Source: an uncultured Methylomirabilota bacterium
GTDB taxonomy: Bacteria; Methylomirabilota; Methylomirabilia; Methylomirabilales; 2-02-FULL-66-22
Assembly: GCA_963705305.1 (NCBI GenBank)
Contig: OY970067.1
Span: 4,896,001 to 4,960,000 of the forward strand
Length of the DNA: 64,000 nt
Reading direction: 5' to 3'
Part shown: positions 4,563 through 24,070 of the stretch, one piece after another
How the letters are laid out: every line of letters starts with the position of its first letter
Numbering within the stretch: position 1 is the first letter of the stretch
Notes under the pieces: generated by a model
Told to the model about the DNA's origin: nothing
Seen by the model: only the letters and a program-made list of their open reading frames with translations
Databases searched by the model: none
Position numbers and translations under genes: made by a program

Positions 4563-4570
4563 GAAGACAG

Positions 4571-5038: not shown

Positions 5039-5274
5039 GATTTGCCCGAACCATCGACACCACGATCTATCCTCGGGGGGCGCTGGCCGACATGCGACAG
5101 GCGTATCGCGACTTCTGCTCCATCTCCGTCACGCCCGGCAATATCCCCGACCTCGTTGATCTCACCATCGACGTTCGAGAACAGTACGAATCCAACGGGC
5201 GCCAGATCGTGCTCGAAGCGTGGAACTATCTGCTGGATCGCGCCTGTCAGATCCACTTCGAGCACCCCACGTAG
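5035..5274 (+). CDS. HxsD-like small protein
   Basis: ATGA overlap with hxsD; 79 aa; IDTTIYP...AYRDF...IVLEAWNYLL parallels the N-terminal half of HxsD. Confidence 0.7.
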   Translation: MRFARTIDTTIYPRGALADMRQAYRDFCSISVTPGNIPDLVDLTIDVREQYESNGRQIVLEAWNYLLDRACQIHFEHPT

Positions 5275-5308
5275 CCCCACGGGGGCAGCACCGAGTCCCG
5301 ATCCGCTC

Positions 5309-6838: not shown

Positions 6839-8031
6839 AGCTCTCGGCAATCGGCACCCCTCGCGGCTTGACCGCCAGTCCGATCGCGCGAGTCACCCGG
6901 AGGTCCCACGATCCGGCCGAGCGTTCCCTGTACTATCGCGTCCTGGAGGACGGGACCGCGCCCGGCTCTCCAGAGGAGATTCAGGGGTACCTCGGCGTGC
7001 TGGTCGCCGCGAACGCGCCCCCCTGGGTCCCCCCGAGAGATGTGCCGGTCATCTCCGGCTTCCGGGATCTGTCCTTCCTTGAGGAGGACGCCATTGTCAA
7101 GATCGGGGCCTCCACGGGACGGCTCAGAGTGCTCTACCGCCCCAGCTCGGCCCATAATGCGCTCTTGGTGACCTCGGCCTGCAATAACCGGTGCATCATG
7201 TGCTCCCAGCCCCCCACGAAAGAGCCCGACGATCCCCTCGACGAGCAGTTGCGGGTCATCGACCTCATCTCGGGCCAGCCCGAGTCCCTTGCCATCACCG
7301 GGGGGGAGCCGACCCTCCTCAAGGAGGGGCTGTTCACGCTTCTGGCGCGTCTCCGAGACCGCCTCCCGCATACCGCAGTCCACCTCCTCACCAATGGACG
7401 CCTGTACGCCTACGAGGACTACGTCCGGCATCTCTCGGAGATCGCACATCCCCACTTTACCTCCGCCATCCCCCTCTACGCCGATGTCGCCCCCCTGCAT
7501 GATGCCATCGTGGGTGCTCCCGGGGCGTTCGATCAGGCCGTCCATGGCCTCTACAATGCCGCCAAGTACGCCCTGAGCTTGGAAATTCGGGTGGTCTTGC
7601 AGCGCCCAACGATCCGGCGGCTGCCCCAGCTGGCGGAATTCATCTACCGGAACTTTCCCTTTGTGAATCACATCGCCTTCATGGGCTTGGAAAACATGGG
7701 GTATGCCGTCAAGAACTGGGACACGCTGTGGGTGGACCCCGTCGAATATGCGCCCACCCTCGAAGCGTGCGTACGGTCCCTCTTTGTCCGCCGGATGAGT
7801 GTGTCCCTCTACAACCTGCAGCTCTGCACCCTGCCCAGATCGCTCTGGTGGTTCGCGAGAAAGAGCATCTCGGAATACAAGAGCATTTACGTCGAGGAGT
7901 GCGTGGCTTGCGGCGCCAAAGACTTGTGTGGCGGCCTCTTCGCTTCCACAAAGCGGAGGCACAGCGCATTCCTGCATCCCATCCGGCGGAGTTCTGCGGG
8001 TCCACCCCTGCTTTCGCCTCGCCTGGCTTGA
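6835..8031 (+). CDS. hxsC: His-Xaa-Ser system radical SAM maturase HxsC
   Basis: ATGA overlap with hxsB; HNALLVTSACNNRCIMCSQPP, ITGGEPTL, LLTNGR, C-terminal ECVACGAKDLCGG. Confidence 0.9.
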   Translation: MKLSAIGTPRGLTASPIARVTRRSHDPAERSLYYRVLEDGTAPGSPEEIQGYLGVLVAANAPPWVPPRDVPVISGFRDLSFLEEDAIVKIGASTGRLRVLYRPSSAHNALLVTSACNNRCIMCSQPPTKEPDDPLDEQLRVIDLISGQPESLAITGGEPTLLKEGLFTLLARLRDRLPHTAVHLLTNGRLYAYEDYVRHLSEIAHPHFTSAIPLYADVAPLHDAIVGAPGAFDQAVHGLYNAAKYALSLEIRVVLQRPTIRRLPQLAEFIYRNFPFVNHIAFMGLENMGYAVKNWDTLWVDPVEYAPTLEACVRSLFVRRMSVSLYNLQLCTLPRSLWWFARKSISEYKSIYVEECVACGAKDLCGGLFASTKRRHSAFLHPIRRSSAGPPLLSPRLA

Positions 8032-8065
8032 CGACTCCGGTCAAACATCGCTCCTAGGGTGCCCG

Positions 8066-8153
8066 AACTCGCAACAGAAGAGCGAAAGTGGTGCGAGCTG
8101 CCTCCGGCGACGACCCCTAACTCTTTGAAATCCGTAACGAACTGTTGCGAGTT
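8066..8153. repeat. Copy 1 of the CTCGCA-core palindromic site with an accessory half-site
   Basis: AACTCGCAACA-12bp-TGGTGCGAGCT, then TGTTGCGAGTT 54 bp further on. Confidence 0.75.
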
Positions 8154-8322
8154 TGTGAGATGGTTCGTCGCGAAGGAGGGGGGTCCTTGTCCTGGGGTCT
8201 TCCCCTAGCCCCACAAGGTAATCCACCCCAGGTCCTGAGCGAGGGGTGGCAGCCGCACGGCACCCAGATCCTGCCCCGCGGTGCCATAGAGTACCGTCTC
8301 TCGGCTCCCGAAGCCCATCCCT

Positions 8323-9842
8323 CCCTAATCTCCGGCTAAGAAGTTGAGGGGGATCGCGAATCACGCAGCGGCCCGCAGTGCGCGCGGCCCGCGGGGTTGG
8401 CATCGGCCTTGCTTGGTTTCACCCAGTGGGTGCAAACACCACAAGGAGGAGAGCGATGCCCGACACCTCGCCCCGGTTGCCGTTCGAGATCGATGACGCG
8501 ATCGACCCCACGCTGGTCACGGGCCGGGCCGGGGTCCCGCTCGTGATCGAGCTGTTCCGCCAGCTCGGGGTGGCCCAGGCCGTCGACACCCACGTTGCGG
8601 TCAAGCAGCGGCAGCGCGGATTACCCCCCTCGCAGCTCGTGGAGAGTCTCGTCGCGTTGTGGACGAGCGGCGGGGACCGCTGCCAGGACCTCACGACGCT
8701 CCGGGAGGATCAGGCCCTGGCCACGCTGCTCGGCTACCCCCTGCCGGCCGCGACCACGGTCCGGGACTTCCTCGAGGCCTTCCACGTGGAGGACGGGCCG
8801 CTCTGGGTGGCCGGGCCCGCGGCCACGGTCCCCCTGGAGTCCGCCCCCTTGGCGGGCCTCGGACAGGCGAACCGGACGCTGGTCGCGGGCGTCCAGCGCG
8901 GGGCCCGGGCGGCGACGGCCACCCTGGATGTGGACGCGACGCTCGTCGAGAGCCACAAGGACGCGGCGACCGTGGCCTACGACGGGACCCGGGGCTACCA
9001 GCCCGTCGTGGTCCTCTGGGCCGAGCACGATGTCATCGTGCACGACCAGTTCCGCGATGGCCAGGTGCCCGCCGGGTGCGGCAACGTGCGCGTCCTCGAA
9101 CAGGCGGTGGCCAACTTGCCCCAGGGCGTGGACCGCATCTCCCTGCGGGCCGACAGCGCCCTCTACGAGACGGAGGTCCTCCGCTGGTGCGAGGAGAAGA
9201 AAATCGCCTACGCGATTAGCGCCGATATGTCCGCGCAGCTCCAGGCCGAGATCCGGCGCCTCCCCGCGGCCGCCTGGCAGCTCGAGCGGGAGGAGCCCGA
9301 GGCGATCCGGGCCTGGGCCGAAGTCCCCTACGTCCCCGAGGATGGCGATCACCGGAAGGCGCGGCCGTGCGTTCGCCGCTACCTCGCGGTGCGTATCCAG
9401 CGACGCCAGGGGAGCCTCTTCGCCGACGGGAGTAGCGTGCAGTACTTCGCCGTGGTCACCAATCGGCCGGAGGATGGGCTCACGATCCTCCGGTGGCACC
9501 GGGAGAAAGCAGGGACCATCGAGCACACCCATCACGTCCTCAAGACCGAGCTGGCGGCCGCCGCGCTGCCCAGTGGGAAGTTCGGGGCGAACGCCGCCTG
9601 GTTCCGGCTGAACGTGCTCACCTACAACCTGCTCACCGCGCTCAAGCGGTTGACCTTACCCGGAGATCTCCGGACCGCCCGGCCGAAGCGTCTCCGGTTC
9701 CTGCTGTTCAACACCGTCGGGAAGGTCGTCGCGCATGCCCGACGGACGCTCTTGCGGCTCTCGGGCGCCCTGCAGCACGCCTTGCTCGTCCGGGCGCGGC
9801 GCAAGATCGCCCGGCTGGCCACCGCTTAGCCGGAGATTAGGG
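8323..9842 (+). mobile_element. IS1380-family insertion sequence
   Basis: Perfect 18-bp terminal inverted repeats CCCTAATCTCCGGCTAAG (8323-8340) and CTTAGCCGGAGATTAGGG (9825-9842); flanks TCCCT/GCCCT form an imperfect 5-bp target duplication. Confidence 0.9.
8456..9829 (+). CDS. IS1380-family DDE transposase
   Basis: ATG after AAGGAGGAGAG; TLDVDAT, GYQP, LRADSALY, IEHTHHVLK, LPSGKFGANAAW, LRFLLF motifs. Confidence 0.9.
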   Translation: MPDTSPRLPFEIDDAIDPTLVTGRAGVPLVIELFRQLGVAQAVDTHVAVKQRQRGLPPSQLVESLVALWTSGGDRCQDLTTLREDQALATLLGYPLPAATTVRDFLEAFHVEDGPLWVAGPAATVPLESAPLAGLGQANRTLVAGVQRGARAATATLDVDATLVESHKDAATVAYDGTRGYQPVVVLWAEHDVIVHDQFRDGQVPAGCGNVRVLEQAVANLPQGVDRISLRADSALYETEVLRWCEEKKIAYAISADMSAQLQAEIRRLPAAAWQLEREEPEAIRAWAEVPYVPEDGDHRKARPCVRRYLAVRIQRRQGSLFADGSSVQYFAVVTNRPEDGLTILRWHREKAGTIEHTHHVLKTELAAAALPSGKFGANAAWFRLNVLTYNLLTALKRLTLPGDLRTARPKRLRFLLFNTVGKVVAHARRTLLRLSGALQHALLVRARRKIARLATA

Positions 9843-10038
9843 GCCCTCGCCCCTGCTTGCATTGCCCCCGCTATCAGAGGTAGAGTGTCGCCGCTCGGAA
9901 CTGCCCTCAGGATGGACCAATCCGTGGGGGCAGGCCGGAGGAGGCGGCGAGGTTGGAGGGCCCAAGCCTCGCAACCGGGCAAGCGTCATCGGATGTACGG
10001 ACAAGTGGCCAGGGCGCAAGGCGCGAAAGGAGAAGGAA

Positions 10039-11208
10039 ATGACCCGAAGGATTGTTGGCGTCGGTATTGTTGCGGCATTGATCTCGCTCGCGCTCGCGAG
10101 CGTGAGCAGCGCGGCCGAGCCCGTCAAGATCGGCATCGTGAGCGAGCTGACAGGCTCCGGCGCAACGGCCGGCATCCGCTTTCAGCGGGGCGTGCTCATG
10201 GCGATGGACGATATCAACGCGAAGGGCGGAATGCTCGGGCGGCAGGTCGAGCAATTCAGCCTCGACACCAGGACAGAGCCGGCGGTCTCGGTCGCCGCGA
10301 TGATGAAAGCGGTGGAACAGAAGCCGTTTGTCGTCATGGGGACTGTGTACAGCGGCTCCACCATTGTCAATATGAAGGTGTTGGAACGGGCAGGCATTCC
10401 GCAAATCACGGCTTCCGGCGCACCCGAAATAACCGAGCAGGGGAATCTGAATATCTTCCGGATGGAGCTCAACAGCGCGCTCGAAATGAAGGAGACCGCC
10501 AAGTGGCTCACGGATGTCTTGAAGACCAAGAAGCTGGCGATCCTTTACAGCAGTGACGCCATGGGGAAGGGGTTGCGAGACGCACTCGTAGAGCTCCTCA
10601 AGCCCCAGGGTGTGCAGATTGTTGCGGATGTCACGAGCGAAGTTGGACAAAGCGACTTCACGGGGGAGCTGGCACGGATCAAGGCATCGGGAGCCGACAC
10701 ATTCTTTTTGTATGTGCACGAGGAGGAAACCGGCCGGGTATTTCGCCAAGCGCGGGAAATCGGCCTGAACAAGATGATGCGGTTTGTCGGATCCAGCACC
10801 CTTTTGACCGCCAACGTCTTGCGGCTGGCAGGCGATGCCGCGGACGGGGCGCTCGCGCATGTTGGCCTGACCAATACCTCCCCGGCGATCATGCCGGTAG
10901 CGGCGCGATACGAGAAGAAGTACCAGGAGCAGCCGGACCACAACTTCATGAAAGGGTATATTGGGCTGCAGATCGCGAACGCCGTCGTCGAGGAGACGAA
11001 ATCGTTTGACCAGCAGAAGTTCCGGGATTTCCTCCATAACCGGACCCTGTGCGTCAAAAAGCACCCGGGCATTCTGCTGGACGTCCATTACGACGGGAAG
11101 GGGGATTTTGACCGGGACACGTTCATCATCACCACCAAGAATGGCAAGCAGGTTCTGCAGGGGACTCTCCCCGCGCTGGAGCCGGCACTGCTCGCGGAAT
11201 GCAAATAG
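10039..11208 (+). CDS. Branched-chain amino acid-type ABC transporter substrate-binding protein (orphan)
   Basis: Signal peptide ending VSSA-AEP; VKIGIVSELTGSGA, DINAKGGMLGRQVE, DFTGELARIKASGAD. Confidence 0.9.
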   Translation: MTRRIVGVGIVAALISLALASVSSAAEPVKIGIVSELTGSGATAGIRFQRGVLMAMDDINAKGGMLGRQVEQFSLDTRTEPAVSVAAMMKAVEQKPFVVMGTVYSGSTIVNMKVLERAGIPQITASGAPEITEQGNLNIFRMELNSALEMKETAKWLTDVLKTKKLAILYSSDAMGKGLRDALVELLKPQGVQIVADVTSEVGQSDFTGELARIKASGADTFFLYVHEEETGRVFRQAREIGLNKMMRFVGSSTLLTANVLRLAGDAADGALAHVGLTNTSPAIMPVAARYEKKYQEQPDHNFMKGYIGLQIANAVVEETKSFDQQKFRDFLHNRTLCVKKHPGILLDVHYDGKGDFDRDTFIITTKNGKQVLQGTLPALEPALLAECK

Positions 11209-11510
11209 CCGCCGCGGGCCGATTCTGCTCGTGCAACCTCTCGGCTGCTGGTCCGATCTCGGGTGATCGCGCGCTGGGCCCGCACCGTGGAAACCGACTT
11301 TGTTGACGAAGGGGGAAGACCTGTGGTACCTGCGCTCTGCCGGGACGAGTGTCCAGGCGGATAGGATGCCGGGGGAGGGAATCGGACCCCCATGGGTCCC
11401 TCGGGCGGGCAATTCGGGTCATGCCTACGCGGCCGATCCACGGTTACGGGCGCTACCGCAGGGGTCAGGCCGTGCGAGGACCTCGAGGCCGCGAGAAAGA
11501 GAGGCTCAGG

Positions 11511-11652
11511 AACTCGCAACACTTCCTGACGGAATTGCTGGACTTCCGGGGCGCCGGAGGAGCCAACTCGCACCATTTCTCCCAATCTGGTGCGAGCCCG
11601 AGCCGCGGGATGCTCCTAAGTGCCGATACGCGGGCACAGAAGGTTGCGAGTT
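11511..11652. repeat. Copy 2 (fully symmetric) of the CTCGCA-core site
   Basis: AACTCGCAAC (11511), AACTCGCACCA (11565), 12 bp, TGGTGCGAG (11588), GGTTGCGAGTT (ends 11652). Confidence 0.75.
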
Positions 11653-12251
11653 TCGGAGGGATTTCGAGAGACAGGATCGTGGGGATCAAATGGCAACACC
11701 TTGTCTACCGACAGCGGGATCGGTGCAGGGTGGATCCGTGCCGCAGGTCGGCACAACCTAGTGCGAGTCCTAGCTGGTTCGCCAACCGCGACTCGCACTC
11801 CGGATGTGAGAGGCGCTTGCGTGGATACGGTTCGAGGCCCTCGCGTGATGCGCGGGGGGTGGGCCCACACATGGCAGATCGCCCACCAGGCCCAGGAACC
11901 CGGAGCGCACCGCCACCGAGCCCGCCACATTAAAATCGGCCGGCCCTAAATATTGAGATTCGGATGAGTACCGGGTCCGCCCTCGCGCTCGGCAGCTGCA
12001 GGGCGTGCCTCCGGGGAGTCTCTGTGGTTTCGTCACCTCCCGACTTCAACCGACGAACAGGGCAGAGCACCCTCGCCCCGTCGGCTCGTCCGCCCAGCCC
12101 AAGTCCCCGGCTGGTCTCCCACCGAGGCCGATCCCTGGGAGTATGCCCCCACCCGCTGACGGAACCCGGATGCCCCTGGGCGGCCCGCCGCGGTCTCTCT
12201 CCGTGCGCGGCCTCCCCTCGACCCTCCTCGGGCACGGGGCCGCCTTTCTCA

Positions 12252-12280
12252 TTGACAGGCCAGCCGGTGTTTTATACGGT
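12252..12280 (+). promoter_or_regulatory. Candidate sigma70 promoter
   Basis: TTGACA-17bp-TACGGT upstream of the sensor kinase. Confidence 0.45.
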
Positions 12281-12432
12281 GGCCTGGCACGAAGCGAGGG
12301 GCAACCCGCGGTGCCTCGCCCGACGGCCATGTGGCGCCGGGGACGCCGTGCGGCGTCGCTGGCACCTTCGGCGAGCGTCGGCACCTGGCGCACCCCCCCG
12401 AGGCGCCGCACCCTGATGGGGGAGGAATGGCG

Positions 12433-14988
12433 ATGGATCGATCGGTAGCGAACCCGGGTGAGGCTGGCAGGGGCTCCCGACTGGTCGCCCATGTGACCGA
12501 GGAGGCGTTGTACGATCGGGATCCGTCGACGGGCGAGACCTGGCGGAGTGAGGCCCACCAGAGGCTGTTCGGATCCTCGGCGGAGACGGCGGGGAACGAA
12601 TGGTGGCAGGAGAGGATCCACCCGGCGGACAGGGAGAGCGTCACCGCCAGCCTGCAGGCGGCCCTCGCGGGGACCGGCCAATCCTGGACCCGGGAGTACC
12701 GGTTCCGCCGGGCCGACGAGTCGTACGCCCGCGTCCTTGACCGCGCCTGGGTCGTGCGGGGGGACACCGGGAACCCGGTCCGGGTGATCGGGGCGATGGT
12801 GGACCTCTCGGGCCGGAAGCAGGCGGAGGACGCCCTGCGGGTTCGAGCGCACCAGCTCGACGCCATCCGCACGGTCACCGAGGAGATCACCCGGGAGCTG
12901 GATCTCACCACCATCCTGGACCTGATCCACCAACGGGCGGTGGCGTTGGTCGGCGCGGAGGGGGGGACCATCTACCTCTGGGAGGAAGCGGCCGAGTGTC
13001 TCGCCCCAGCGATTTGGCACGGGCACGGGGACTGGCTCGGTGCGGCGCGCCTGAAGCGCGGCGATGGGCTGGCCGGGGTCGTCGCAGAGCGCCGGGAGGG
13101 CCTGATCGTCAACGACTACCGGCACTCCCCGCACGCCCATCCCTTCATCCTGGAGCACAGTCAGGTCTCCGCGGTCCTCGGCGAGCCCCTCCTCTACCAG
13201 GGGCGCCTCTTGGGGGTCATCACCCTGGTCCACGAGGATCCCCGGCGCGTCTTCACGGAGCAGGATCGCGAGCTCCTGGCCCTCTTCGCCAGTCCGGCGG
13301 CCATCGCCATCGAGAACGCCCGGCTCTACACGGCGACCTCCCAGCGCCTCCGGGAGATGACGGCACTCTACGACGTGAGCCGCGCGACCACCTCCACCCT
13401 GGACCTCGACGCGCAACTGGAGGCGCTCCTCCAGCGGCTGATCCAGGCGGGCGCCCAGCGCGCGATGGTCAGCCTCGTGGAGGCGGGGGGCGGGGGGCAG
13501 CCCCACTTGCGCCTCGCGTACGACGCCTCCCGGGCCGATCCCTGGCTCCGCGACCTCGACCTGGCCCCGGACACGTACCCGGAGGTCCAAGTGGTGGGGC
13601 GGACCCGCCAGCCCCTCCTGATCCCCGATGTCCGCTCGGCACCTCTCCTGGAGGCCGTCCGGGACCGCCTGGAGGCCGTCGGCCTCCGAACGTTGGCGAT
13701 CCTCCCCTTGCTCGTCCGGGACGAGGCCATCGGCGCCATCAGTCTGGGCTTCAGGGGCCCGGGTCGGACCGTCAGCGACGCGGACCTCCGGTTCTACCAG
13801 AGCCTGGCCGACCTCGCCGCCATGGCCATCGCCAACTCGCGGCTGTTCGCCCAGGCGTCCCGCGCGCAGGCGGACTGGGAGAACACCTTCAATTCCCTCA
13901 GCGAGCTGGTGGCAGTCATCGACGCCGACCGCCGCCTGCTCCGGGTCAACCGGGCCCTGGCGGATCGGCTCCAGACGGCCCCCGCGGCCCTGGTGGGGCA
14001 GCACTGTTACACCGCCCTCCATGGGACCGATTGCCCGTGGCCGCAGTGCCCCCATGCCGACACCCTTGCCACGGGACAGCATTCGACCAGGGACGTCGAG
14101 GACCCGCATCTCGGCGGGATTTTCCACGTGACCACCTCGCCCCTGCGCGATGCCGAGGGCCGGGCCCTGGGCGCCGTGCACATCGCCCGGGACATCACGG
14201 AGGAGCGGCGGCTCGAGGGGGAATCCCGGCAACGCCAGCGGTTCGAGGATCTCAGCCGGGCCAAGTCGGCCTTCATCGCGAGCATGTCCCACGAGCTCCG
14301 GTCGCCGCTGAACGCCATCCTCGGCTTCGCCGACCTGTTGCTCGAGCAGGCGCCGGACCCGCTCTCCGAGAAGCAGGCGCGCCACCTCGGCCACATCCGC
14401 AAAGCCGGCCAGCACCTCCTCCAGCTCATCAGTGACATCCTGGACCTCGCCAGGGTGGAGGCGGGGAAAATCGAGCTCCACCGGGAGCCCCTGCCGGTGG
14501 CCGCCACCGTGGAGGACATCCTGGCGATTGCCCGGGGGCAGGCGAACAAGAAGGCCCAGAGTCTCCTGATGGAGATCGCCCCGGACCTCCCCTTGCTCTC
14601 GGCGGATCCCGTGCGCTTCAAGCAGATCTGCTTCAACCTCCTCAGCAACGCCGTGAAGTTCACCCCGGAGCACGGCAGGATCACGCTCACGGCGCAGCGT
14701 GCGCCCACGGATCCGGCGCTCCTGGAGATCCGCGTGACGGACACCGGGGCCGGCATCCGGCCGGAGGATCTGCCGCGCCTGTTCACAGAGTTCACCCAGC
14801 TCGAGACCACCCGCGAGCAGCACCGCGAGGGCACCGGCCTGGGCCTCACCCTGACGAAGCAGCTCGTCGAGCTGCACGGCGGCCGGATCTGGGCGGAATC
14901 CGACGGCGCGGGCCGGGGGAGCACCTTCGCGGTCCTCCTGCCATTGGGCGGACCGCCGGAGGGCCCAGCCGGATCCCCGTCCTCCTGA
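12433..14988 (+). CDS. Cytoplasmic PAS-GAF-GAF-PAS sensor histidine kinase
   Basis: PAS (WQERIHPADRE), two GAF domains, H-box FIASMSHELRSPLNAILGF, NLLSNAVKFT, DTGAGI, GTGLGL; RBS GGAGG. Confidence 0.93.
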   Translation: MDRSVANPGEAGRGSRLVAHVTEEALYDRDPSTGETWRSEAHQRLFGSSAETAGNEWWQERIHPADRESVTASLQAALAGTGQSWTREYRFRRADESYARVLDRAWVVRGDTGNPVRVIGAMVDLSGRKQAEDALRVRAHQLDAIRTVTEEITRELDLTTILDLIHQRAVALVGAEGGTIYLWEEAAECLAPAIWHGHGDWLGAARLKRGDGLAGVVAERREGLIVNDYRHSPHAHPFILEHSQVSAVLGEPLLYQGRLLGVITLVHEDPRRVFTEQDRELLALFASPAAIAIENARLYTATSQRLREMTALYDVSRATTSTLDLDAQLEALLQRLIQAGAQRAMVSLVEAGGGGQPHLRLAYDASRADPWLRDLDLAPDTYPEVQVVGRTRQPLLIPDVRSAPLLEAVRDRLEAVGLRTLAILPLLVRDEAIGAISLGFRGPGRTVSDADLRFYQSLADLAAMAIANSRLFAQASRAQADWENTFNSLSELVAVIDADRRLLRVNRALADRLQTAPAALVGQHCYTALHGTDCPWPQCPHADTLATGQHSTRDVEDPHLGGIFHVTTSPLRDAEGRALGAVHIARDITEERRLEGESRQRQRFEDLSRAKSAFIASMSHELRSPLNAILGFADLLLEQAPDPLSEKQARHLGHIRKAGQHLLQLISDILDLARVEAGKIELHREPLPVAATVEDILAIARGQANKKAQSLLMEIAPDLPLLSADPVRFKQICFNLLSNAVKFTPEHGRITLTAQRAPTDPALLEIRVTDTGAGIRPEDLPRLFTEFTQLETTREQHREGTGLGLTLTKQLVELHGGRIWAESDGAGRGSTFAVLLPLGGPPEGPAGSPSS

Positions 14989-15102
14989 GACGCGTGGGCT
15001 CCATTCTGACCGGGGCTTGCCTCCGCTCGAGGCTGCGCCGAGTACGAAGGGGGCGTTTCGGGTCTCCGTTGGCTCACCACTGTGGTTCCAAGGCATCCGC
15101 CG

Positions 15103-15327
15103 TTAAAGGGGACGTTGCATTATCTGTCATATCTTGCCTTCCCCGGACCACTTCTCCCGAGGAGGGGAAGGACTCGGATGGCGCGCACAGCCGGGTCTAG
15201 CCCACCATGCCTGCATCCTGCGGACTACCCACCCCCCCTCCCTTGCCCTAACCCGCGGGCTTCCCCTATTGCTCCCGCTGGCCAGAAACGCAGAAGATTA
15301 TACAAATAATGCTACGTCCCGTATTTC
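15103..15327 (+). repeat. ~225-bp IR-bounded miniature element, copy A
   Basis: Near-identical to 23449-23672; ends GGGACGTTGCATTAT ... ATAATGCTACGTCCC are inverted repeats. Confidence 0.85.
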
Positions 15328-15434
15328 AGAAACGGCAGGGTCCCCCTTCACGATGCGAGCACGAGGGCCTACCCCGCGAACGAAGCCGCGCTAGTGAATG
15401 TGCAGCCAACCTCCGCGCTGCCGAGTAGCTGGCC

Positions 15435-16991
15435 CTACTCTTCTTTCCAAGTATCCTTGGTGCAGTACACCAATTCCAGCGGCGAGTTGACGACGTTGTG
15501 AACCTTCAGCGACATGCCCACGGTCTCTTTGGTCGCCAGGAGGTAGATGGCCATGGGATCTTGGGCCAGGATCTCCTGGGCCTTTTGCATGTAGGCGTCT
15601 CGCTCCTTCACGTTCCGCGAGGCCACAGCCTTGTCAACCGTCTCGTCGAGCGCCTTGTTGCAGTAGTACCCCGCATTGTTGCCGGTAGGGCCCCACTGCG
15701 TGCAGTTGCTGAGGCCGAAGATCACCCAGCGGGCCTCGCCGGTGGAGGCGGCGAACCCCAAGAGCCACATCTCTTGCTTCGCCTCCTCCTTCGGCTTCCG
15801 AAGTGTGGAGAGGTAAGTCCCCCAGTCGAAGGTCTCCAGCTTGGCGTCGATCCCGACGTCCCGGAGCTGCTGCTGGATCGCCTGGGCGAGCTCATAGTCC
15901 TTCAAGTAGCGCCCCTTGGGGGTCCAGAGCGTGGTCTTGAAGCCGTTGGGGTAGCCGGCCTCGGCCAAGAGCCGCTTGGCCTTGGTTGGATCATAGCCGT
16001 ACCCCTTCACCGGCGCATACCCGACGTTGAGGGGGCCAACCACGGTCGGGACCACCGCGGCTCGATCCTGGTAGATGTTCTTCACGATGGAGTTCTTATC
16101 CACCGCGTAGTTCAAGGCCTGCCGCACGCGGACGTTGTCGAATGGCTTCTTGGTGACGTTGAATCCGATGTAAAGGACGCGGTTGCTCTGTTCCGCATAG
16201 ACCCGGACCTTCCCCTCACGCATGAGCTGTGGTACCTCTTCCGGCGGGATGCGGACGATCAAGTCGTAGTCCCCCGCCTCCAGGCCCAGCACCCGGGCGG
16301 AGTCCTCGCGGACCGTCTTCACGATGATTTTATCCAGGTACGGCTTTCCTGCGTAGTAGTCGTCGTTTCGCACCAGGGTGACGTGATCGCCGCGCACCCA
16401 CTCCACGAACTTGAAGGGGCCGGTCCCCACCGGATGCAGGGTCAGGTCCTTCCCCCACTTCTTGTGGGCCGTGGGGCTGACGATACCCGAGGCGCTGTGG
16501 GCCAGGTTGTTCAGGAAGAAGGCGAAGGGGACCTTGAGGTGAAAGCGCACCGTGTACTCGCCCACCACCTCCACCGACTTGATGATGGGAGCATGCAGGC
16601 CCGACTTCAGAGGCCTGTCTGGTCCGAGGAATCGATCGAAGGTGTACTTCACTGCCTCCGCGTCCAGGGGCGTGCCGTCGTGGAAGGTCACGCCCTTGCG
16701 CAGGGTGAAAGTCCAGGTGAGCCCGTCCGCGGACTGGCGCCACTGCGTGGCCAGGTCGGGCACGATGTGCATTTGAGGGTCGAATTTCACTAGGTAGTTG
16801 TAGAGCATGTGGCCGACGGCCTCACCGGTGTTGCTGTCGGTGTTGGCCGGATCCAGGTTGTCGGGGTCCGCTCCGGCAGCGTAGATCAGCGTGCCGCCGC
16901 TCTGCGGCTGCGTCGCCGTCCAGGCACCGGGTGCCAGGGCAAGTACCGCGATCAAGAGCACCGACCAGAAACTCCATCCTCTTTGTGGCAT
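15435..16991 (-). CDS. Peptide/glutathione-type (family 5) ABC substrate-binding protein, orphan paralog
   Basis: PDLATQW...WTFTLRKGVTFHDGTPLDAEAVKYTFDR, PVGTGPFKFVEW, VRQALNYAVD; closely similar to 45676-47232. Confidence 0.92.
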   Translation of the reverse strand: MPQRGWSFWSVLLIAVLALAPGAWTATQPQSGGTLIYAAGADPDNLDPANTDSNTGEAVGHMLYNYLVKFDPQMHIVPDLATQWRQSADGLTWTFTLRKGVTFHDGTPLDAEAVKYTFDRFLGPDRPLKSGLHAPIIKSVEVVGEYTVRFHLKVPFAFFLNNLAHSASGIVSPTAHKKWGKDLTLHPVGTGPFKFVEWVRGDHVTLVRNDDYYAGKPYLDKIIVKTVREDSARVLGLEAGDYDLIVRIPPEEVPQLMREGKVRVYAEQSNRVLYIGFNVTKKPFDNVRVRQALNYAVDKNSIVKNIYQDRAAVVPTVVGPLNVGYAPVKGYGYDPTKAKRLLAEAGYPNGFKTTLWTPKGRYLKDYELAQAIQQQLRDVGIDAKLETFDWGTYLSTLRKPKEEAKQEMWLLGFAASTGEARWVIFGLSNCTQWGPTGNNAGYYCNKALDETVDKAVASRNVKERDAYMQKAQEILAQDPMAIYLLATKETVGMSLKVHNVVNSPLELVYCTKDTWKEE

Positions 16992-17287
16992 CACAAGACC
17001 CTCCTAACCTGTAAGTCTGGACGTAGCGCACTTATCGCACTTGTTCGAAGCTGGCTCGGGTCCCCCGACTATTCGCCCGAACAAAAGACGCCGATCCTCA
17101 TTCGAGAACCGGCGTTTCGATGCGCGTTGGCTCCCTCCACGAGAACGGGGACCGATGATCGGGGTCCGGAGAACAGGGCGCATGTGGACGCGTCCGATCT
17201 TCAGGCCCTTCCGCTTTCCGAGGGGGATTGTCGATTGTGGGTGGGTTATATCAAATGGCTGAGGGCAAAGCAAGCAAGGAGCAAGGA

Positions 17288-17437
17288 CCCAAATCTCCGG
17301 CTAACCTGTGCATCGCCTCTACGGGGCGCCACCCGTCGGGTGCGACCAGGTCCGAGGCGGGCAGCCGGCCCCGCAGCCATGAATGCGGGCGCGACTCATG
17401 TGCGCTACCGGCCTGCGACGTTAGCCGGAGATTAAGG
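17288..17437. mobile_element. 150-bp MITE with IS1380-like ends
   Basis: Terminal repeats CCCAAATCTCCGGCTAAC and GTTAGCCGGAGATTAAGG; perfect 5-bp target duplication AAGGA (17283-17287, 17438-17442). Confidence 0.88.
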
Positions 17438-17702
17438 AAGGAGGTCTGGCGGAACGTGGAACAAGGGCGAGGGGGTCAGCAACGGCACGAGGCGCAGGAG
17501 ATAGTGCCTCCTCGCTGGCAGACCTCTTTCCTCGGAGTTCACCTGAGCGGGCATGCATTTTGTTCAACTGGCCGCCCGTCCCTCCGCCGAGGTAGGCCCC
17601 GCGCCTCCCGCCCGCCGCCTCGTTTTGGTCCAGGACCGGGGAGACGGCAGCCGAGCAGACAGCAGCGCAGCCATCCCGACTGACGCCGGGAGTGCGGCCG
17701 GC

Positions 17703-18473
17703 TCAGCCTGGGACCGGGATCCGCCAGCCTGAGAAGCCATAGTCGGAGTTGTCCGGATCGAAGTCTCGACCCGGGAGGCCCGGATTGAGGCGCAAATGGG
17801 AGTAGGTGTAGTCCTCGACGAGTCGATCGTCCCAATCGTACACCACCACCCGAATGGGAAGGCCGCTCTCCTCGTCGAATGAAAGGAGGACTCGGTAGGC
17901 GTAATAGCCTGCCCCCGCGTCTCGGGGCAGGATGCTTTCAATCGTGCGGACCGGGCGTCCGGCCACCTCCCCCGGACCGCGATCCACCACCTGCAGGACG
18001 CCGCTCCGGGCCGCCCGCCGGGCGTTGTCCCCTACGATCTCCAGCAACCGTCCAATGCCGACATCGGTCACCGGGTGCCTGCTCTTCTCCATGACCCGGC
18101 GGTCCCCCGGATCCAGGGCGGCGGTGAAGAGGCGCCGCAGCACCCCCCGCGGCTCGTACACGAGAAATCTCCCGTCGTAGGCGCCATTGACGTAGAGACC
18201 TTCCCGACCCTTTCCGGGGCCTTCGAGCCATTTCATGTACACTTTGAACGGACGCTGGAATTTCAAGAGGATTCTCTGTTCGGGAAGAAGGATACCCTGC
18301 ACGCGGTCCCGGCTGATCATAATGGACGTGTAGTCGTAGACCCCGGCGTAGGATCGCTCGGCTCGTTCCAGTAGCCGCACAAGCTCGGCGGGGCCGGCCG
18401 CCAGGATCGAGCCGGGCGCGCCGAGGATCAGCCCACACACCAACAGCAAGATGGTCTTCCACATCCGATACAT
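17703..18473 (-). CDS. Exported DUF1571-like protein
   Basis: Signal peptide; FQRPFKVYMKWLEGPGKGREGLYVNG, SRHPVTDVGIGRL, EDYTYSHLRLNPGL...DFDPDNSDY. Confidence 0.75.
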   Translation of the reverse strand: MYRMWKTILLLVCGLILGAPGSILAAGPAELVRLLERAERSYAGVYDYTSIMISRDRVQGILLPEQRILLKFQRPFKVYMKWLEGPGKGREGLYVNGAYDGRFLVYEPRGVLRRLFTAALDPGDRRVMEKSRHPVTDVGIGRLLEIVGDNARRAARSGVLQVVDRGPGEVAGRPVRTIESILPRDAGAGYYAYRVLLSFDEESGLPIRVVVYDWDDRLVEDYTYSHLRLNPGLPGRDFDPDNSDYGFSGWRIPVPG

Positions 18474-19271
18474 GCAGACCTCGATGCGTGCCCGTGGCTT
18501 CACAGCCCCACGGCGAAGCGGATGCGAGACAGATCGTTACTCAAATGTGGATAGAGGCCGACCCATAGCGTGCATGACTCACGAGCCGCTGGAGCACAAG
18601 TTGGGTGAAATCTGGCGCATGAGTGGTGTTCTGGTGGAAGTCCGCCTGCGCGAGATGCTTCGGGAGGTGCGGCGGCGGAAGCTTCCGATGTCGCGCCCGC
18701 CGGGTTGGTTTCGTGTGAACCCGGGATATGCCCTGTTTATGCGTCGCTTGAGCTCTGATTCCTGGTTGGAAAACCCAGCGTGCCTGTCCTCTCGGTGTAC
18801 AACTCGAAGAGCCCCGTGAGATCATCGCGGAAGAAAACGGCCGGCCTGTTGAGGCGATGAACGGTGCGTCCTCGCAGGCACTTGAAGTCAAAGAGGCGAT
18901 CCTTCGGGCTGCCCGTGCGGTAGGTCTCCCACATCATCGAGAGGTACTCCGGATTCTCATCGTTCGGCCGACACCGCCAATATGAAGGATTCGGAGGGCT
19001 TCCTGCGTGACTCTCCTCCGCACACCCCGCACGGCAAAATCAGGTGGCGCTGACCCCACGAGGATGGCAAGGGGACGTCCCAGATGTAGCCGATGATTGC
19101 GTGACTCCCTCCTTGCTGACCCACGATGGAGAGGACATGCTCACCGGGATGCCATTCCTTGTGGGGGGGGCTGACTGCGTATTCCGGCGATCTCGGCCGC
19201 CCAGTCCGGCGGGATGTCGGCCACGCGTTCCGGCGCATGCCGGCCGGAGCGAAGCGACGCTGGGCGTTCGG

Positions 19272-20033
19272 TTATTTCTCACACACGGGCGGGGCTGTCA
19301 AGCCCGCCCGGGTCTTCCGCAGCGATCCGCCGGTCAGCGTGAGCTGATGGGCGTTGTGCACCAGCCGGTCGCAGATGGCATCGGCGATCGTCGGATCCCC
19401 GATGCACTCGTGCCAGTGGCTCACCGGGAGCTGCCCGGCCAAGAGCGTGGAGCGGGTCCCATGCCGGTCGTCCACCACCTCGAGGAAGTCCCGCCGCTCC
19501 GCATCACTCAGGGGGGCGATGCCCCAATCGTCCACCACGAGCAGCTCGGTCCGGGCGAGCTGGCCGAGCACCACCGGGTAGCTCCCCTCCCCCCGGGCCA
19601 GGGCGAGCTCCTGGAAGAGCCGCGGGGCGCGGAAGTAGCGGACCGTGTGCCCCTGCCGGCAGGCCTGGTGGGCCAAGGCGCAGGCCAGGAACGTCTTCCC
19701 CGTGCCGGTCGGCCCCACGCAGATCAGGTTCTGGTGCTGGGTGAGCCACTGGCCCGTGGCCAGGCTCCGGACGAGGGCCTTGTCGAGCCCGCGCGGGGTC
19801 CGGAAGTCGAGGTCCTCGACACAGGCCTGGGGGAGCTTGAGCTTGGCGGTCTTCAGCCGCTGGAGCTGCCGGCGGTTCTCCCGGGCGGTCCACTCGGCAT
19901 CCACCAGGAGCCCGAGCCGCTCGGCGAAGGTGAGGTCGGCGGCCTCCGGGGATCGCTCCTGCGCCTCCCAGGCGGCGAGGAGGCCGTGCAGGTGCAGGGC
20001 CTGGAGTTTCTCGACGGTCGGGCTACGCAACAT
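19272..20033 (-). CDS. istB: IS21 helper ATPase IstB
   Basis: Walker A GPTGTGKT, Walker B LLVVDDWG, ADAICDRLVHNAH. Confidence 0.95.
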   Translation of the reverse strand: MLRSPTVEKLQALHLHGLLAAWEAQERSPEAADLTFAERLGLLVDAEWTARENRRQLQRLKTAKLKLPQACVEDLDFRTPRGLDKALVRSLATGQWLTQHQNLICVGPTGTGKTFLACALAHQACRQGHTVRYFRAPRLFQELALARGEGSYPVVLGQLARTELLVVDDWGIAPLSDAERRDFLEVVDDRHGTRSTLLAGQLPVSHWHECIGDPTIADAICDRLVHNAHQLTLTGGSLRKTRAGLTAPPVCEK

Positions 20034-21582
20034 CGGACGTCTCCTTTCGGGTGTAGTAGGCCGACCCCCGCACATGGGCATGCGCGGGGCGCGGCGGGGT
20101 GGACACCGGCACGAGGGGGTGCTGATCCAGGCCGGTGCGCAGGATCGACTGCACGCTCTTGTACGACAGGGCGCGGATCGCCAGCGCCCGCGCGCAGGCG
20201 GCCTCGAGCCGGGCGGCCGGGTACTGCTGGCTCAACCGGAGCAGGCCGAGGCACGACCGGTACCCCTGCTCGGGGTGGGGGCGGCTCGCCAGGATCGCCG
20301 CGATCAGCGCGGCGGTGGCCGGCCCGATCGTCGCCCCCCAGTGCGCCAGGCGGGACGGCGTCCAGGCCAGGTGCCGCTGGTGGGCCTTGGGGCGGTGGGC
20401 CGGCTCGGTGGTGAAGCCGCCCCGCTGCGAGCTCCGGACATGGGAGGCCACGCGCTGCCCTCGGTGGAAGATCTCCACCACGGTGGCCGTATAGCGGAGC
20501 TCGACCTCGTGGTGGACGAGCTGGTAGGGCACGCTGTAGGAGTGCCCCGCCAGCTCCACGTGGTAATCGATGTTCGCCCGGGCGCGCTTCCACTCGGCGA
20601 AGACGTAGGGCGTGGCGGGCAGTGGCCGGAGCGCCGGCTTGTCCACGGTCTCGAAGAGCGTCCGGCGCGAGCCGGGCAGTTTGCGGAAGGGGCGGTTGTT
20701 GAGCTGATCCAGCAACTCCCAGACCGCCGTGTTCAGCGCGGCCAGGTGGAAGAACGTGCGGTGCCGGAGGGCGGCGACGATCCAGCGCTCGACGATGAGC
20801 ACGGCCGTCTCCACTTTGGCTTTATCGCGTGGCCGGCGGACGCGCGTGGGGAGGATGGTCGTGCCGTAGTGGGCCGCGAGGTCGAGGTACGTGGGGTGCA
20901 GATCGGGCTCGTAGCGGTCCGGATGGAGGACGGCGCTCTTGTGGTTATCCGGGATCAGGGCGGCCGGCACGCCCCCCAGGTATTCGAACGCGCGGACGTG
21001 GCTCCCGATCCAGGCCGGGAGATCGGCCGCGCGGGTGGCCTCGGCATAGGTGTAGTTGCTCGCGCCGAGGACGGCGACGAACAGCGCCACCGGGGCGCGG
21101 GCCCCCGTCGTGGGATCCGTCACCCAGAGCGACTGGCCGGCGTAATCGAGGAACAGCTTCTCGCCAGCCCGGTGCTCCTGGCGAAGGCAGAGGTCGAGGG
21201 CCTGGGCCCACTGGCGGTAGTGGACGCAGAACTGGCTGTACTGGAGCCCGGCGGGATCCCCGGCCTTGTACTCCCGCCAGAGGAGCTGGAGGGTGACCCC
21301 GGGGTGCGTGAGCTCCTGGTGGATGGTGGCCCAGTCGGGCAGCGGGTGCTGGCCTGGCGGGCGGCCCGGCCGGCGGTAGAGCCGTGCCTCGAGGGTCCCG
21401 TCATCGAGCTCGGGCGGGAGTGGCCACGTCAGGCCGGCGGCCGCGGCGCGGACGAGGCACTCGGCCACCGAGCTACGGGCGATCTTGCAACTCTGGGCGA
21501 TCTCGCGATTACTGCGCTGGCAGGTCCACTTCAGGCGGAGGATCTCTCGAATCGTGCGCATGGATAGTCGCTCAGCGGCCAC
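20023..21582 (-). CDS. istA: IS21 transposase IstA
   Basis: N-terminal HTH (MRTIREILRL...NREIAQSC), LFLDYAG, IPDNHK, PRDKAKVE. Confidence 0.95.
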   Translation of the reverse strand: MAAERLSMRTIREILRLKWTCQRSNREIAQSCKIARSSVAECLVRAAAAGLTWPLPPELDDGTLEARLYRRPGRPPGQHPLPDWATIHQELTHPGVTLQLLWREYKAGDPAGLQYSQFCVHYRQWAQALDLCLRQEHRAGEKLFLDYAGQSLWVTDPTTGARAPVALFVAVLGASNYTYAEATRAADLPAWIGSHVRAFEYLGGVPAALIPDNHKSAVLHPDRYEPDLHPTYLDLAAHYGTTILPTRVRRPRDKAKVETAVLIVERWIVAALRHRTFFHLAALNTAVWELLDQLNNRPFRKLPGSRRTLFETVDKPALRPLPATPYVFAEWKRARANIDYHVELAGHSYSVPYQLVHHEVELRYTATVVEIFHRGQRVASHVRSSQRGGFTTEPAHRPKAHQRHLAWTPSRLAHWGATIGPATAALIAAILASRPHPEQGYRSCLGLLRLSQQYPAARLEAACARALAIRALSYKSVQSILRTGLDQHPLVPVSTPPRPAHAHVRGSAYYTRKETSDVA

Positions 21583-21733
21583 CGGGTCCCTCCTGGTTTC
21601 GGGTTTCCAGGAGGATACCCTAGGCCCGCGCTATCCAGCGTCGCTTCTACGTGCTCCCGAGGTGGCCGGCATGCGCCGGAATGGGTGGCCGGCATCGACC
21701 GGAATCGGCGGCCGGCATGCGCCGGAATACGCA

Positions 21734-21854
21734 GTTGACCGGGCCCGGGCGCCTGCTGGGCCAGGGCGGCGCCCGCGCCGCCCATCGTCAAGCCGACCAG
21801 GAGCGCTCCTCCCAGCACCCAACCCCGATGCCTGAATCCCTTGCCTGTTGTCAT
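21734..21854 (-). pseudogene. 5' part of a secreted-protein ORF interrupted by IS21
   Basis: RBS AAAGGAG; MTTGKGFRHRGWVLGGALLVGLTMGGAGAALA-QQAPGPGQ runs directly into the IS end. Confidence 0.65.
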
Positions 21855-22177
21855 ACCGTGCTCCTTTTGTGAGAGAACACACTCGCCTTTCGAGGTAGCA
21901 CTGCCCTTTGGGTGAGGAGGGTCACCTAGACAGTACAGGCGCCGTCGCCCCGTTGTTTCACAGGGCGAGCCTCGTCCGTCCAGGTCCCCCACGAGGCCCC
22001 TGGGACCCTACCGGGGCCCGCAGTGCAGTCATGGCTTGACAGGAGGAAGGGGGATAACTGCTTGACAAAAGAGGGATCTTTGCTTCGGCAGGCTCCTTGC
22101 CGTTTCCCCGCGGCTACGCCTAATGGGAACCAGGGAGGACGAAACGGACGGCGGCCGGCCTCCTGGGGGGATTCTCC

Positions 22178-22951
22178 TCACGGAGTACGTCTGTCCGGTG
22201 CCGGATGTTCGGCCGTCTCCACCGGATGACGCCGCTGCCAGGCCGGCAGCGTGCGCACGATGCCGGACAGCGCATACAGCGTGAAGAAGAGGAGCAGGAA
22301 CAGGCTGGGCTGCGAGGCCATGACCAGGAACACCAGGAGCAGCGTCGTCAGGAGGGTGAAGGGCTGCCGTCTCCGCAGCTCCAGTCCCTTCAAGCTGCGG
22401 TAGCGGAGCTTGCTCACCATGAGGAACCCCAATCCGAACATCCCCAGCAAGAGACCGACGGCCGTCCACTGGGCCGGGACCACCCTGCGGCCGAGGACGA
22501 CCGCCGCCGGGGATCCCTGCATGAACAGCACGAACGCAGCCACCAGCGCGCTCGCGGCCGCAATGGGCAGCCCCACGAAGAAGCGCCTGTCCACGCTGCG
22601 CGGCTGGACGTTGAAGCGGGCCAAGCGGATTGCGCCGCAAGCGGTGAAGGCGAAGGCCGCCAAGCCGCCGACCCAGCCGAAGCGCTGCAGCGCATAGACA
22701 TAGGCCAAGAGGCCGGGGGCGACCCCAAAAGACACCAGATCGGCCAGCGAATCCAGCTCGATGCCGACTTCGCTGGTCGCGCCGGTCATCCGGGCCACGC
22801 CCCCGTCCAGATAGTCGAAGACCAGCGCCAGGAGGATGGCCACTGCGGCTGCCATGTACTCGTCGTCGTACACCGCCACCAGCGCATAGAAGCCGCAGGA
22901 CAGGTTCCCCAGCGTGAGGATGCTGGGGAGCAGATACACCCCCCGCCGCAT
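22178..22951 (-). CDS. pssA: CDP-diacylglycerol--serine O-phosphatidyltransferase
   Basis: LPSILTLGNL, FDYLDGGVAR...GIELDSLADLVSFGVAP, RLARFN, FVGLP. Confidence 0.92.
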   Translation of the reverse strand: MRRGVYLLPSILTLGNLSCGFYALVAVYDDEYMAAAVAILLALVFDYLDGGVARMTGATSEVGIELDSLADLVSFGVAPGLLAYVYALQRFGWVGGLAAFAFTACGAIRLARFNVQPRSVDRRFFVGLPIAAASALVAAFVLFMQGSPAAVVLGRRVVPAQWTAVGLLLGMFGLGFLMVSKLRYRSLKGLELRRRQPFTLLTTLLLVFLVMASQPSLFLLLFFTLYALSGIVRTLPAWQRRHPVETAEHPAPDRRTP

Positions 22952-23448
22952 GGTCACCCGCCCTGCCCGCATGAAATCACCCCCCTCGCCGTCGGCGCTC
23001 GGACCCTTGAGAATACCAGGCCACGGAATGTGTCAGAGAACGCCGACGCCCACGGGGCCTCCTGATGTGATGCTTCTGCGGATCGAGTGGCCCTCGGCGC
23101 TGCTGGTTTCCCCAATATCCGGCCCTTCCTTCCGCCAGCAGGACAGGAGGCTGCTGCAGGGGGCTCCATGCAGCTACCCACGGCGCACCGGGGGAGAGCG
23201 CCAGGACGACGGGGGTTCTCAGGGAACCCCAAGTCACCGGAGCATGTCTCCCGTCCTCAGCGCACCCGGTGCATCGTCCCTGCGCAGGCATCCCGGACAG
23301 CCGGGACATATCGGCAGGCCGCCCCCGCGATTCCACTGCTCAGCAGGGCTCCCGCCAAGATGTCAGAGGGAAAATGCGCCCCCTGGACCCCGTGCGGGTG
23401 GTGTCCTATTTTGGATTTTGAGCCTATTATTATCAATCTGCATCGTCA

Positions 23449-23685
23449 TTAAAGGGGACGTTGCATTATCTGTCATATCTTGCCTTCCCCGGACCACTTC
23501 TCCCGAGGAGGGGAGGGACTCGGATGGCGCGCACGGCCGGGTCTAGCCCATCATGCCTGCATCCTGCGGATTTCCCACCCCCCTCCCTTGCCCTAACCCG
23601 CGGGCTTCCCCTATTGCTCCCGCTGGCCAGAAACGCAGGAGATTATACAAATAATGCTACGTCCCGTATTTCCGTCCCGTATTTC
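23449..23685 (+). repeat. ~225-bp IR-bounded miniature element, copy B
   Basis: Near-identical to 15103-15327, with a tandem duplication of CGTCCCGTATTTC at its right end. Confidence 0.85.
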
Positions 23686-23845
23686 AGCCGCCCATGACGA
23701 CGTAGTCCCCCCCTTCCGGGAGGGACCGCGACCACCGGGCCTCCGTCGGGTGGCAACTTCGCGTGGAAGTGTCGGCCAAATCATAGCCCGTCAATCGTAT
23801 GGGCCGAGCCGTGCAAGGCACTCGGTGGCTGCAAGAGAAAGTGGC

Positions 23846-24070
23846 TCAGGAACTCGCAACAGTTCTGGACGGGTCTCCGAGACTTCCGGGGCGCTGGAGG
23901 GGCCAGCTCGCACCAGTGCTGCGATCCTGTTGCGGGGTCTGGAAGGCCTTCGCCAGCGCATTGGCGGCCTGCAGCTTGTCCTCCTTGGTGACCCTGGCGT
24001 AGATCGTGGTCGTCTTGATGCTCGCGTGCACCACTTACTCCTGGACGACCGCCAGGTCGTTTTCACATCG
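23846..24070 (-). pseudogene. Tyrosine recombinase/integrase C-terminal remnant
   Basis: DLAVVQE*VVHASIKTTTIYARV is a degenerate box II (VQxxLGHASxxTTxIY) containing a stop codon. Confidence 0.7.
23851..23937. repeat. Copy 3 of the CTCGCA-core site
   Basis: AACTCGCAACA (23851), AGCTCGCACCA (23905), 12 bp, TGTTGCGGGG. Confidence 0.72.

Follow-up and report, generated by a model that had tools for sequence, protein, structure and literature searches.

Tyrosine recombinases have been split into core-plus-catalytic and arm-bearing groups (PMC8138268), and the available text of two accounts describes them as needing a core-binding domain, enzymes without one being either relaxases or unassigned (PMC8138268, PMC8152469). 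Among described systems, the TnpI/IRS of Tn4430 comes closest in build to the one reported here: two inverted 14-bp motifs are cut 6 bp apart and are accompanied by one-sided accessory direct repeats sharing 9 bp, the whole site being ~100 bp long, as described in PMC2847244. Here we analysed a window of 64,000 nucleotides (the whole stretch to which positions without a prefix refer) from an uncultured Methylomirabilota bacterium (assembly GCA_963705305.1, contig OY970067.1, positions 4,896,001 to 4,960,000), which contains three dispersed copies of a repeat with rigid internal spacing. Sequence comparisons make it very probable that these repeats are the recombination site of an undescribed family of tyrosine recombinases consisting of the catalytic domain only. 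The system is built like TnpI/IRS and is arranged somewhat like an integron, but it belongs to neither, nor to the lambda-type att systems. In the following, G000 denotes this genome (5.65 Mb), other G numbers denote related genomes, and L numbers denote fetched loci.

The initial annotation of the window had described an inverted pair of short motifs around a 12-bp spacer at 8066-8153, 11511-11652 and 23851-23937, with an extra half-site at exactly 54 bp, on the right of copy 1, on both sides of copy 2 and on the left of copy 3; all of these are present. The half-site pattern gives six strand matches at two or fewer mismatches in the window, against a shuffle mean of 0.14, and none of 100 shuffles reached six. 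Based on 27 strict units plus 47 gene-joined and 29 gene-less sites, the description could be refined, as the conserved halves extend over ~14 bp and variation is confined to the central 6 bp. The whole site is ~90 bp long: an armless half (O, ~14 bp) and the arm-side half (I) enclose six variable bases, and a 40-bp linker, in which a TAAGT-type box is conserved, leads from I to a further copy of the motif 54 bp away from it. The middle box resembles the IHF consensus, and we take it to be a putative site for a bending protein. The repeat has an arm score of at least 9 in 67 of 88 rows, and any second repeat is degenerate at best.

Copy 1 (plus strand) comprises O at 8066-8079, the six variable bases, which would form the strand-exchange overlap, at 8080-8085, I at 8086-8099, the IHF-like box at 8117-8130 and the accessory repeat at 8140-8153. 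Copy 2 is an I|I fusion, in which a left module (repeat, linker and half I, minus strand, 11511-11578) and a right module (half I, linker and repeat, plus strand, 11585-11652) flank a six-base centre at 11579-11584; the left module, a recombinase tail without its gene, shares 65 of 68 bases with the site at G000:C1:3829256-3829329, and the right one is 80% like the site at G000:C1:4780145-4780224. Copy 3 (23851-23938, minus strand) has O at 23925-23938, the six bases at 23919-23924, I at 23905-23918 and the repeat at 23851-23864. In comparison with TnpI/IRS, one strong repeat and a bending-type box replace DR1-DR2, the site lies in the 3' end of the recombinase gene, centres differ within one genome, the enzyme has no core-binding domain, and no Tn3 transposase was seen among the open reading frames (ORFs) scanned near sites, which were taken from heuristic, incomplete lists. 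The 6-bp exchange region proposed here is read from alignments of site sequences.

The site is tied to a gene. As the initial annotation had noticed, copy 3 overlaps the 3' end of a tyrosine recombinase remnant (23846-24058, minus strand), which corresponds to residues 168-236 of an intact relative and has one internal stop; its reading frame crosses core and arm to the stop at 23848-23846, so that the last 30 codons are copy 3 itself. The intact relative, found in G019 (L027:876-1589), encodes 237 amino acids (aa), and again its last 30 codons are the site. Among 44 distinct 3' ends of the family, drawn from loci L038-L115, 32 encode the core, three have a decayed tail and an inverted site after the stop, and nine have neither, while 34 of the 47 gene-joined tails end at the same codon. 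In 14 open, de-replicated family genes, the motifs use CAA for Gln (12/12, vs 15/50 in the gene body), AGT for Ser (11/11 vs 2/59) and GTT for Val (11/12 vs 5/106); since these codons are rare in the body and yet fixed in the motifs, the constraint acts on the DNA. In most loci the gene begins 350-520 bp inside a homology border or island end, behind an XRE or a 104-aa gene. A sub-lineage (L050, L070, L078, L085-L087, L110, L054 and L088) has a decayed tail site and a second, inverted site directly behind the stop; in L054 and L088 this post-stop site is an I|I fusion, and in L078 an opposite site follows 4.7 kb further on.

Family members are 230-237 aa long. Of the 176 proteins that a database search returned at E<=0.001, the best were mostly of 230-238 aa, and three bear Methylomirabilota names. 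Intact relatives carry the R-K-H-R-H/W-Y signature of the tyrosine recombinase superfamily, with R54, K81, H151, R154, H178 and Y187 fully or almost fully conserved across 41 rows. They match PF00589 with an E value of 3e-29 over residues 10-193 of 237, which leaves neither a core-binding nor an arm-binding domain. XerD and XerA align only from their own residue 102-120 on, placing the family outside the simple core-binding plus catalytic class, and a wide clade of catalytic-only relatives of 200-250 aa shares 35-46% identity with it. A structure model built from 41 rows (mean pLDDT 53, no Foldseek match at E<=0.001) was not used. No description of the family or its site was found in the openly readable literature, nor any report on Methylomirabilota together with integrase and genomic island. 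For one catalytic-only protein, an intact gene is now available together with a defined site of 90 bp whose six-base centre is mapped, which makes the function of such proteins directly testable.

The earlier reading of att- or res-like sites of an undescribed family therefore stands in so far as these are sites of a tyrosine recombinase tied to its gene. The part that saw the 54-bp repeat as an arm-type site of the lambda kind does not, since the enzyme lacks an arm-binding domain and what is repeated is the core motif itself.

A genome-wide scan with fixed spacing, which the initial annotation had proposed, gave nine matches to the strict arm-plus-core pattern in G000 and none in the reversed or the complemented genome, and looser scoring gave 11 loci, in three of which the spacer is 3 bp shorter. 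Among half-motif spacings from 0 to 99 in G000, 12 and 66 (12+54) were the commonest, occurring six times each. The anticipated link to recombinases is borne out: five of the 11 loci lie inside the 3' end of a broken short tyrosine recombinase, and the remaining six lie in three clusters no more than 28 kb from such a remnant, a zone covering 5.8% of the genome (the remnant match at 4891859 is the site itself). Every recombinase copy in G000 is broken, by an internal stop or as a fragment, so that, short of an intact copy coming in, the sites are probably inert. The 3-bp, in-frame shortening of the centre is common to the sites at G000:C1:2851750, 3156429 and 4766866, which are probably one inherited, inactive variant. 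An identical broken module of ~1.06 kb (104-aa gene plus pseudogene) occurs at G000:C1:3833663-3834725, 4765781-4766843 and 2851797-2855843, one of the three being split by an IS21-type insertion; it cannot encode the whole enzyme. Window 8066-8099 and G000:C1:4780214-4780247, 124 kb apart and inverted, have the same O, the same six bases and nearly the same I, and are the only matched inverted pair noticed in G000.

In the phylum, where 11 candidates per genome were scored, the recombinase family was found in three of 251 genomes, which carry 7, 8 and 11 cores. Other genomes have 0-2 cores: seven further members of the genus have one or two each, and outside the genus the pattern matches six genomes, which is below its control. 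Sites without any family gene occur in G006, G010 and G014. Viral contigs gave no family member and six core matches, two of them scoring on the matrix and none with the 54-bp repeat, and plasmids and phages gave only distant relatives (<60% identity). In gene-less sites, O has 0-2 mismatches in 33 of 33 cases and is perfect in 23, whereas about one perfect O per genome is expected by chance; in the 29 gene-less sites conservation begins sharply at O, and such copies retain the entire site. Being near-perfect, these O halves would travel with mobile DNA rather than represent host targets.

This observation bears on another possible explanation, namely that these are classical att sites with the arms inside, in which I|I would be an attP or a tandem joint, O|O the attB of the host, and 8086-11578 and 11585-23918 tandem elements. 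I|I joints do exist (copy 2, L054 and L088), twice directly behind the recombinase, the order in the window is O|I, I|I, I|O, and the integrases of Myxococcus phages Mx8 and Mx9 offer a described parallel, with an attP within the integrase gene (int) in Mx8 and recombination that alters the C-terminus of the protein (PMC6070905). Those phages, however, recombine attP with a host attB, whereas the tails exchanged here are homologous and remain in frame. Nothing resembling an attB was found: an armless O|O core occurs in none of 86 sites and nowhere in G000. The O halves are too exact and too clustered for chance host targets, most neighbouring sites are one-armed direct repeats, and no site lies upstream of the gene in 139 kb, all of which, together with the missing arm-binding domain, makes classical att sites improbable.

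Placement at promoters, which the initial annotation had named as the finding that would turn the motif into a transcription-factor operator, was also checked. Fixed spacing of inverted and direct repeats would suit an operator, and XRE-type helix-turn-helix (HTH) genes often precede the recombinase. However, the sites are not at promoters; they lie in a coding 3' end or behind stops, the next gene start is from 1 to >1000 bases away in either direction, no sigma-70-like promoter was seen in 7900-12100, and the halves are exchanged at the centre. An operator is largely refuted and, in our view, highly improbable.

Exchange at the centre is suggested by a comparison of 89 collected rows, from which one artefact was removed, leaving 83 O|I rows and five rows for three I|I fusions. 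The expectation that the motif would be found at breakpoints proved right for chimeras: halves of related sites occur in swapped combinations, and the switch falls at the six bases. Nine pairs among 85 rows are alike on the right side but not in the left flank, and in the cases to which they reduce (L171@10063, L178@7085 and L070/L110) the six bases differ and the sequence matches from I onward; in the first two, the right side is 91-93% identical with recombinase tails and the left flanks are unrelated. A further 73 non-independent pairs are alike in the left flank and not in the linker. L175@9790 and L180@8153, from the same genome, are identical over 60 bases plus O and diverge as soon as the six bases begin; in another left-flank group, identity stops behind I and not at the six bases. 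The I|I fusions, copy 2 and those of L054 and L088, all have exactly the normal spacing.

RIT elements mark the same position. They are passengers with their own ends, and here they have entered both the recombinase gene and the site's core; the available text of two papers on RIT elements (PMC3414803, PMC5737581) does not describe targeting of another recombinase's core. At L064, L102 and L177, each with a six-mer of its own, RIT-type ends follow exactly where O plus the six bases stop; a second copy of the six-mer stands before I in L102 and, with one mismatch, in L177, and two of the three RIT-joined left flanks are found elsewhere with an ordinary I module. The elements enter the core in both orientations. 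The joins mark the centre, yet they also open a rival route to the chimeras. The centre insertions (L102:7063-10520, L177:9801-10330 and L064:5647-5700) comprise a three-recombinase element and a 0.5-kb derivative, and show a tiny palindromic end-junction between inverted copies of the six bases; this looks like a RIT lineage that targets the core of another recombinase. Other RITs, with the same end-junction, sit inside the recombinase gene at the H-x-x-R-H codons (L079:10470-13890, L180:4547-7945, L175:9990-13400, L124 and L092).

The likeness to IRS (PMC2847244) also feeds a different explanation, that of a resolvase and its res site, which would resolve dimers of island circles at sites of matching overlap; the arrays would then be piled-up relics of islands, and the chimeras accidental or RIT-made. 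In its favour are the place of the gene just inside the island end, satellite-like genes in L051 (DnaB, an excisionase-type HTH protein), remnants, from 30 bp up to the whole gene, that precede sites, and the entry of RIT elements in both orientations. Yet a recombinase is missing on the left in 36 of the 83 O|I rows, which still carry near-perfect O halves, the chimeras switch at six bases between sites of unlike overlaps, Tn3 transposases are missing from the scanned ORFs near sites, and G000, which holds no end of the core-targeting RIT, nevertheless has an I|I fusion. We consider a resolvase unlikely.

Relaxases resembling tyrosine recombinases raise a similar question. MobK, TcpM and MpsA, as described in PMC8152469 and PMC6414798, have the catalytic domain only, without core- or arm-binding domains, and, beside the gene, a transfer origin (oriT) rich in inverted and direct repeats; the present family also lacks both domains and is island-borne, its site could be such an origin, and the gene-less copies could be oriT-only islands. 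On the other hand, no conjugation genes were found in the hosts searched, neither the coupling protein PF02534 nor VirB4 (PF03135) occurring in any of five genomes, three of them site-rich (G019 is 72% complete, and helpers can be transient). Furthermore, both edges of the 6-bp centre are in use, a sign of two-strand exchange, and free variation in the centre is unexpected for an oriT. A relaxase is accordingly a rather remote explanation.

Cargo exchange at the site would place it beside the integrons, in which, as described in PMC8138268, a tyrosine recombinase likewise stands at the head of a series of sites separated by cargo. In the 43 loci that have a gene-joined site, ten further sites were found downstream of the gene (147 kb) and none upstream (139 kb), so that the array is one-sided. 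The blocks between sites are 1-14 kb long and carry transport, signalling and defence-like genes; four sites form an array in a 15.3-kb tRNA-Arg island, and three lie in a 27-kb tRNA-Leu island of G000. Gene-less sites also persist in integrons, as CALINs. Other features differ from integrons. The recombinase scores 91.4 bits against TIGR02249, the IntI model, whose cut-off is 265; the halves do not fit the GTTRRRY consensus boxes of attC, and each secondary site repeats the primary site in full; and cargo comes in multi-gene blocks of either direction, unlike the mostly single-gene cassettes of one direction. Instead of the long imperfect hairpins of attC, the folds show the short inverted motifs of the site and vary from copy to copy (z -1.6 to -4.8).

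How the reactions might run can be outlined. Two recombinase subunits would occupy O and I and make cuts separated by 6 bp, and further subunits, arranged about a host protein that bends the DNA at the middle box, would bind the repeat 54 bp away, in the manner of TnpI/IRS. The recombinase would have to tolerate mismatched overlaps, as IntDOT of CTnDOT does and unlike most tyrosine recombinases; IntDOT is described as exchanging mismatched overlaps (PMC2817482) and provides a precedent. A circle with one O|I site could insert at a resident O|I site, and blocks could in this way be cut out, inserted and stacked in islands; as a result, cargo would pile up behind the gene, and the recombinase would receive a new but in-frame tail at each event. 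Copy 2 may have arisen by exchange between oppositely aligned sites, or may be a scar left after the exit of an O..O block like the Hxs block described below. If mismatched overlaps are indeed exchanged, the enzyme would be a recombinase both small and flexible, and cassette-like arrays could arise by a second route.

A number of observations weigh against this picture. The nine informative pairs amount to three independent cases only. Pairs that have a recombinase on both left sides could have exchanged by homologous recombination, some of them switching behind I and not at the six bases, and RIT copies in two sites could yield such chimeras through homologous recombination with subsequent excision. 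There are 40 different six-mers among 88 rows, while most tyrosine recombinases are described as requiring identical overlaps (PMC2817482). Without L171, which was fetched for its sites, the downstream excess falls to seven sites in five loci against none upstream, and since the gene starts just inside the homology border, its place at an island edge may explain the asymmetry. Gene direction next to O is unbiased (17 toward, 11 away), no cargo block occurs in two different arrays, and blocks occur as I..O, I..I and O..O, so that a single reaction is insufficient. The missing core-binding domain is also a trait of relaxases. Finally, no excised circle, empty allele or site joint was seen in four contig-only, low-cover runs (G000:C1:4890001-4909000), which is evidence neither way. 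Whatever the case, cargo exchange and stacking as the role of site and enzyme seems to us a balanced question. Taken as a whole, a recombinase-tail site with exchange over six bases that stacks island cargo is the best explanation, and we lean towards it slightly. The widest version, an integron analogue of separate origin, with a catalytic-only recombinase, a primary site in its own tail, mismatch-tolerant exchange of double-stranded sites, multi-gene arrays including Hxs, C-terminus swaps and one specialised RIT lineage, is put forward tentatively, and we would not yet back it.

The three copies are not the ends of the island; all of them are internal to an island of ~46.7 kb that lies between other inverted ends. 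Genes at G000:4888354-4888652 and window 41109 are 48.5 kb apart here and 4-5 kb apart in G005, G010 and G020. The inverted 18-bp ends of the island match in 16 positions and lie at G000:C1:4890253, beside a long-integrase remnant, and at 40974-40991 (minus strand). The end motif is common by itself, and the island border therefore rests on position. At the right end lies a deleted head module of the short recombinase family (40723-40927, minus strand), in which the start of the 104-aa gene is fused to a few 3' codons and a possible decayed site of weak score. The ends are assigned to an integrase other than the short recombinase family. Inwards from the right end, this possible decayed site is followed by copy 3, by copy 2 with its I|I fusion and by copy 1 in reversed orientation; the last in the row is a fourth site, which lies 4 kb beyond the left edge of the window at G000:C1:4891858-4891945. 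The 104-aa gene (window 40772-40927; L060:9565-9879) has no Pfam family and alternates with the XRE gene before the recombinase; its look-alikes in the Atlas are small proteins without names, which occur most often in phages and Bacillota.

Copy 1 and the fourth site bracket a 12.1-kb block with SRAP, NT5C, HNH and hxsA-D genes, which has O at both ends and unlike centres. The His-Xaa-Ser cluster (hxsA-like, hxsD, hxsD-like, hxsB and hxsC; 4251-8031, plus strand) forms part of this block, and the noted proximity of copy 1 to hxsC holds, with 34 bases between the stop at 8031 and the start of copy 1 at 8066. HxsC occurs in two of 251 genomes of the phylum, which marks it as foreign. The initial annotation had suggested that the sites delivered the Hxs island. 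The bracketing agrees with this, but the centres are unlike, no joint was seen in the four contig-only runs, and the other HxsC genome has no site within the 3.9 kb fetched; delivery by these sites is a possibility and no more. The cluster contains an extra small HxsD-like gene at 5035-5274. The SRAP gene (G000:C1:4892025-4892702) ends 79 bases from the fourth site; an SE element was considered for this reason and rejected, as the SE ends and integrases, described as 19-bp C/C' ends and two long integrases (PMC9345347), were not matched.

A 3'-end relic of tRNA-Leu(CAA) at 11367-11396 (minus strand) belongs to a type that trails such recombinase tails at many loci. The tRNA-Leu or tRNA-Asn relic was considered as the true crossover and rejected, since it is absent behind many tails and the chimeras switch in the core. 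Further tRNA-Leu(CAA) relics are dispersed in the genome (G000:C1:354581, 473218, 516890, 915796, 2851574, 3829134, 4044223 and 4907391), several of them continuing into similar short sequences. A 233-bp repeat left of copy 3 was tried as a circular permutation and proved to be a multi-copy element. An IS1380 copy (8323-9841, plus strand), a recent unrelated insertion, lies 170 bp right of copy 1 and has >20 near-identical or related copies in the genome. An IS21-type element at 19176-21733 has a second genome copy that is 99% identical.

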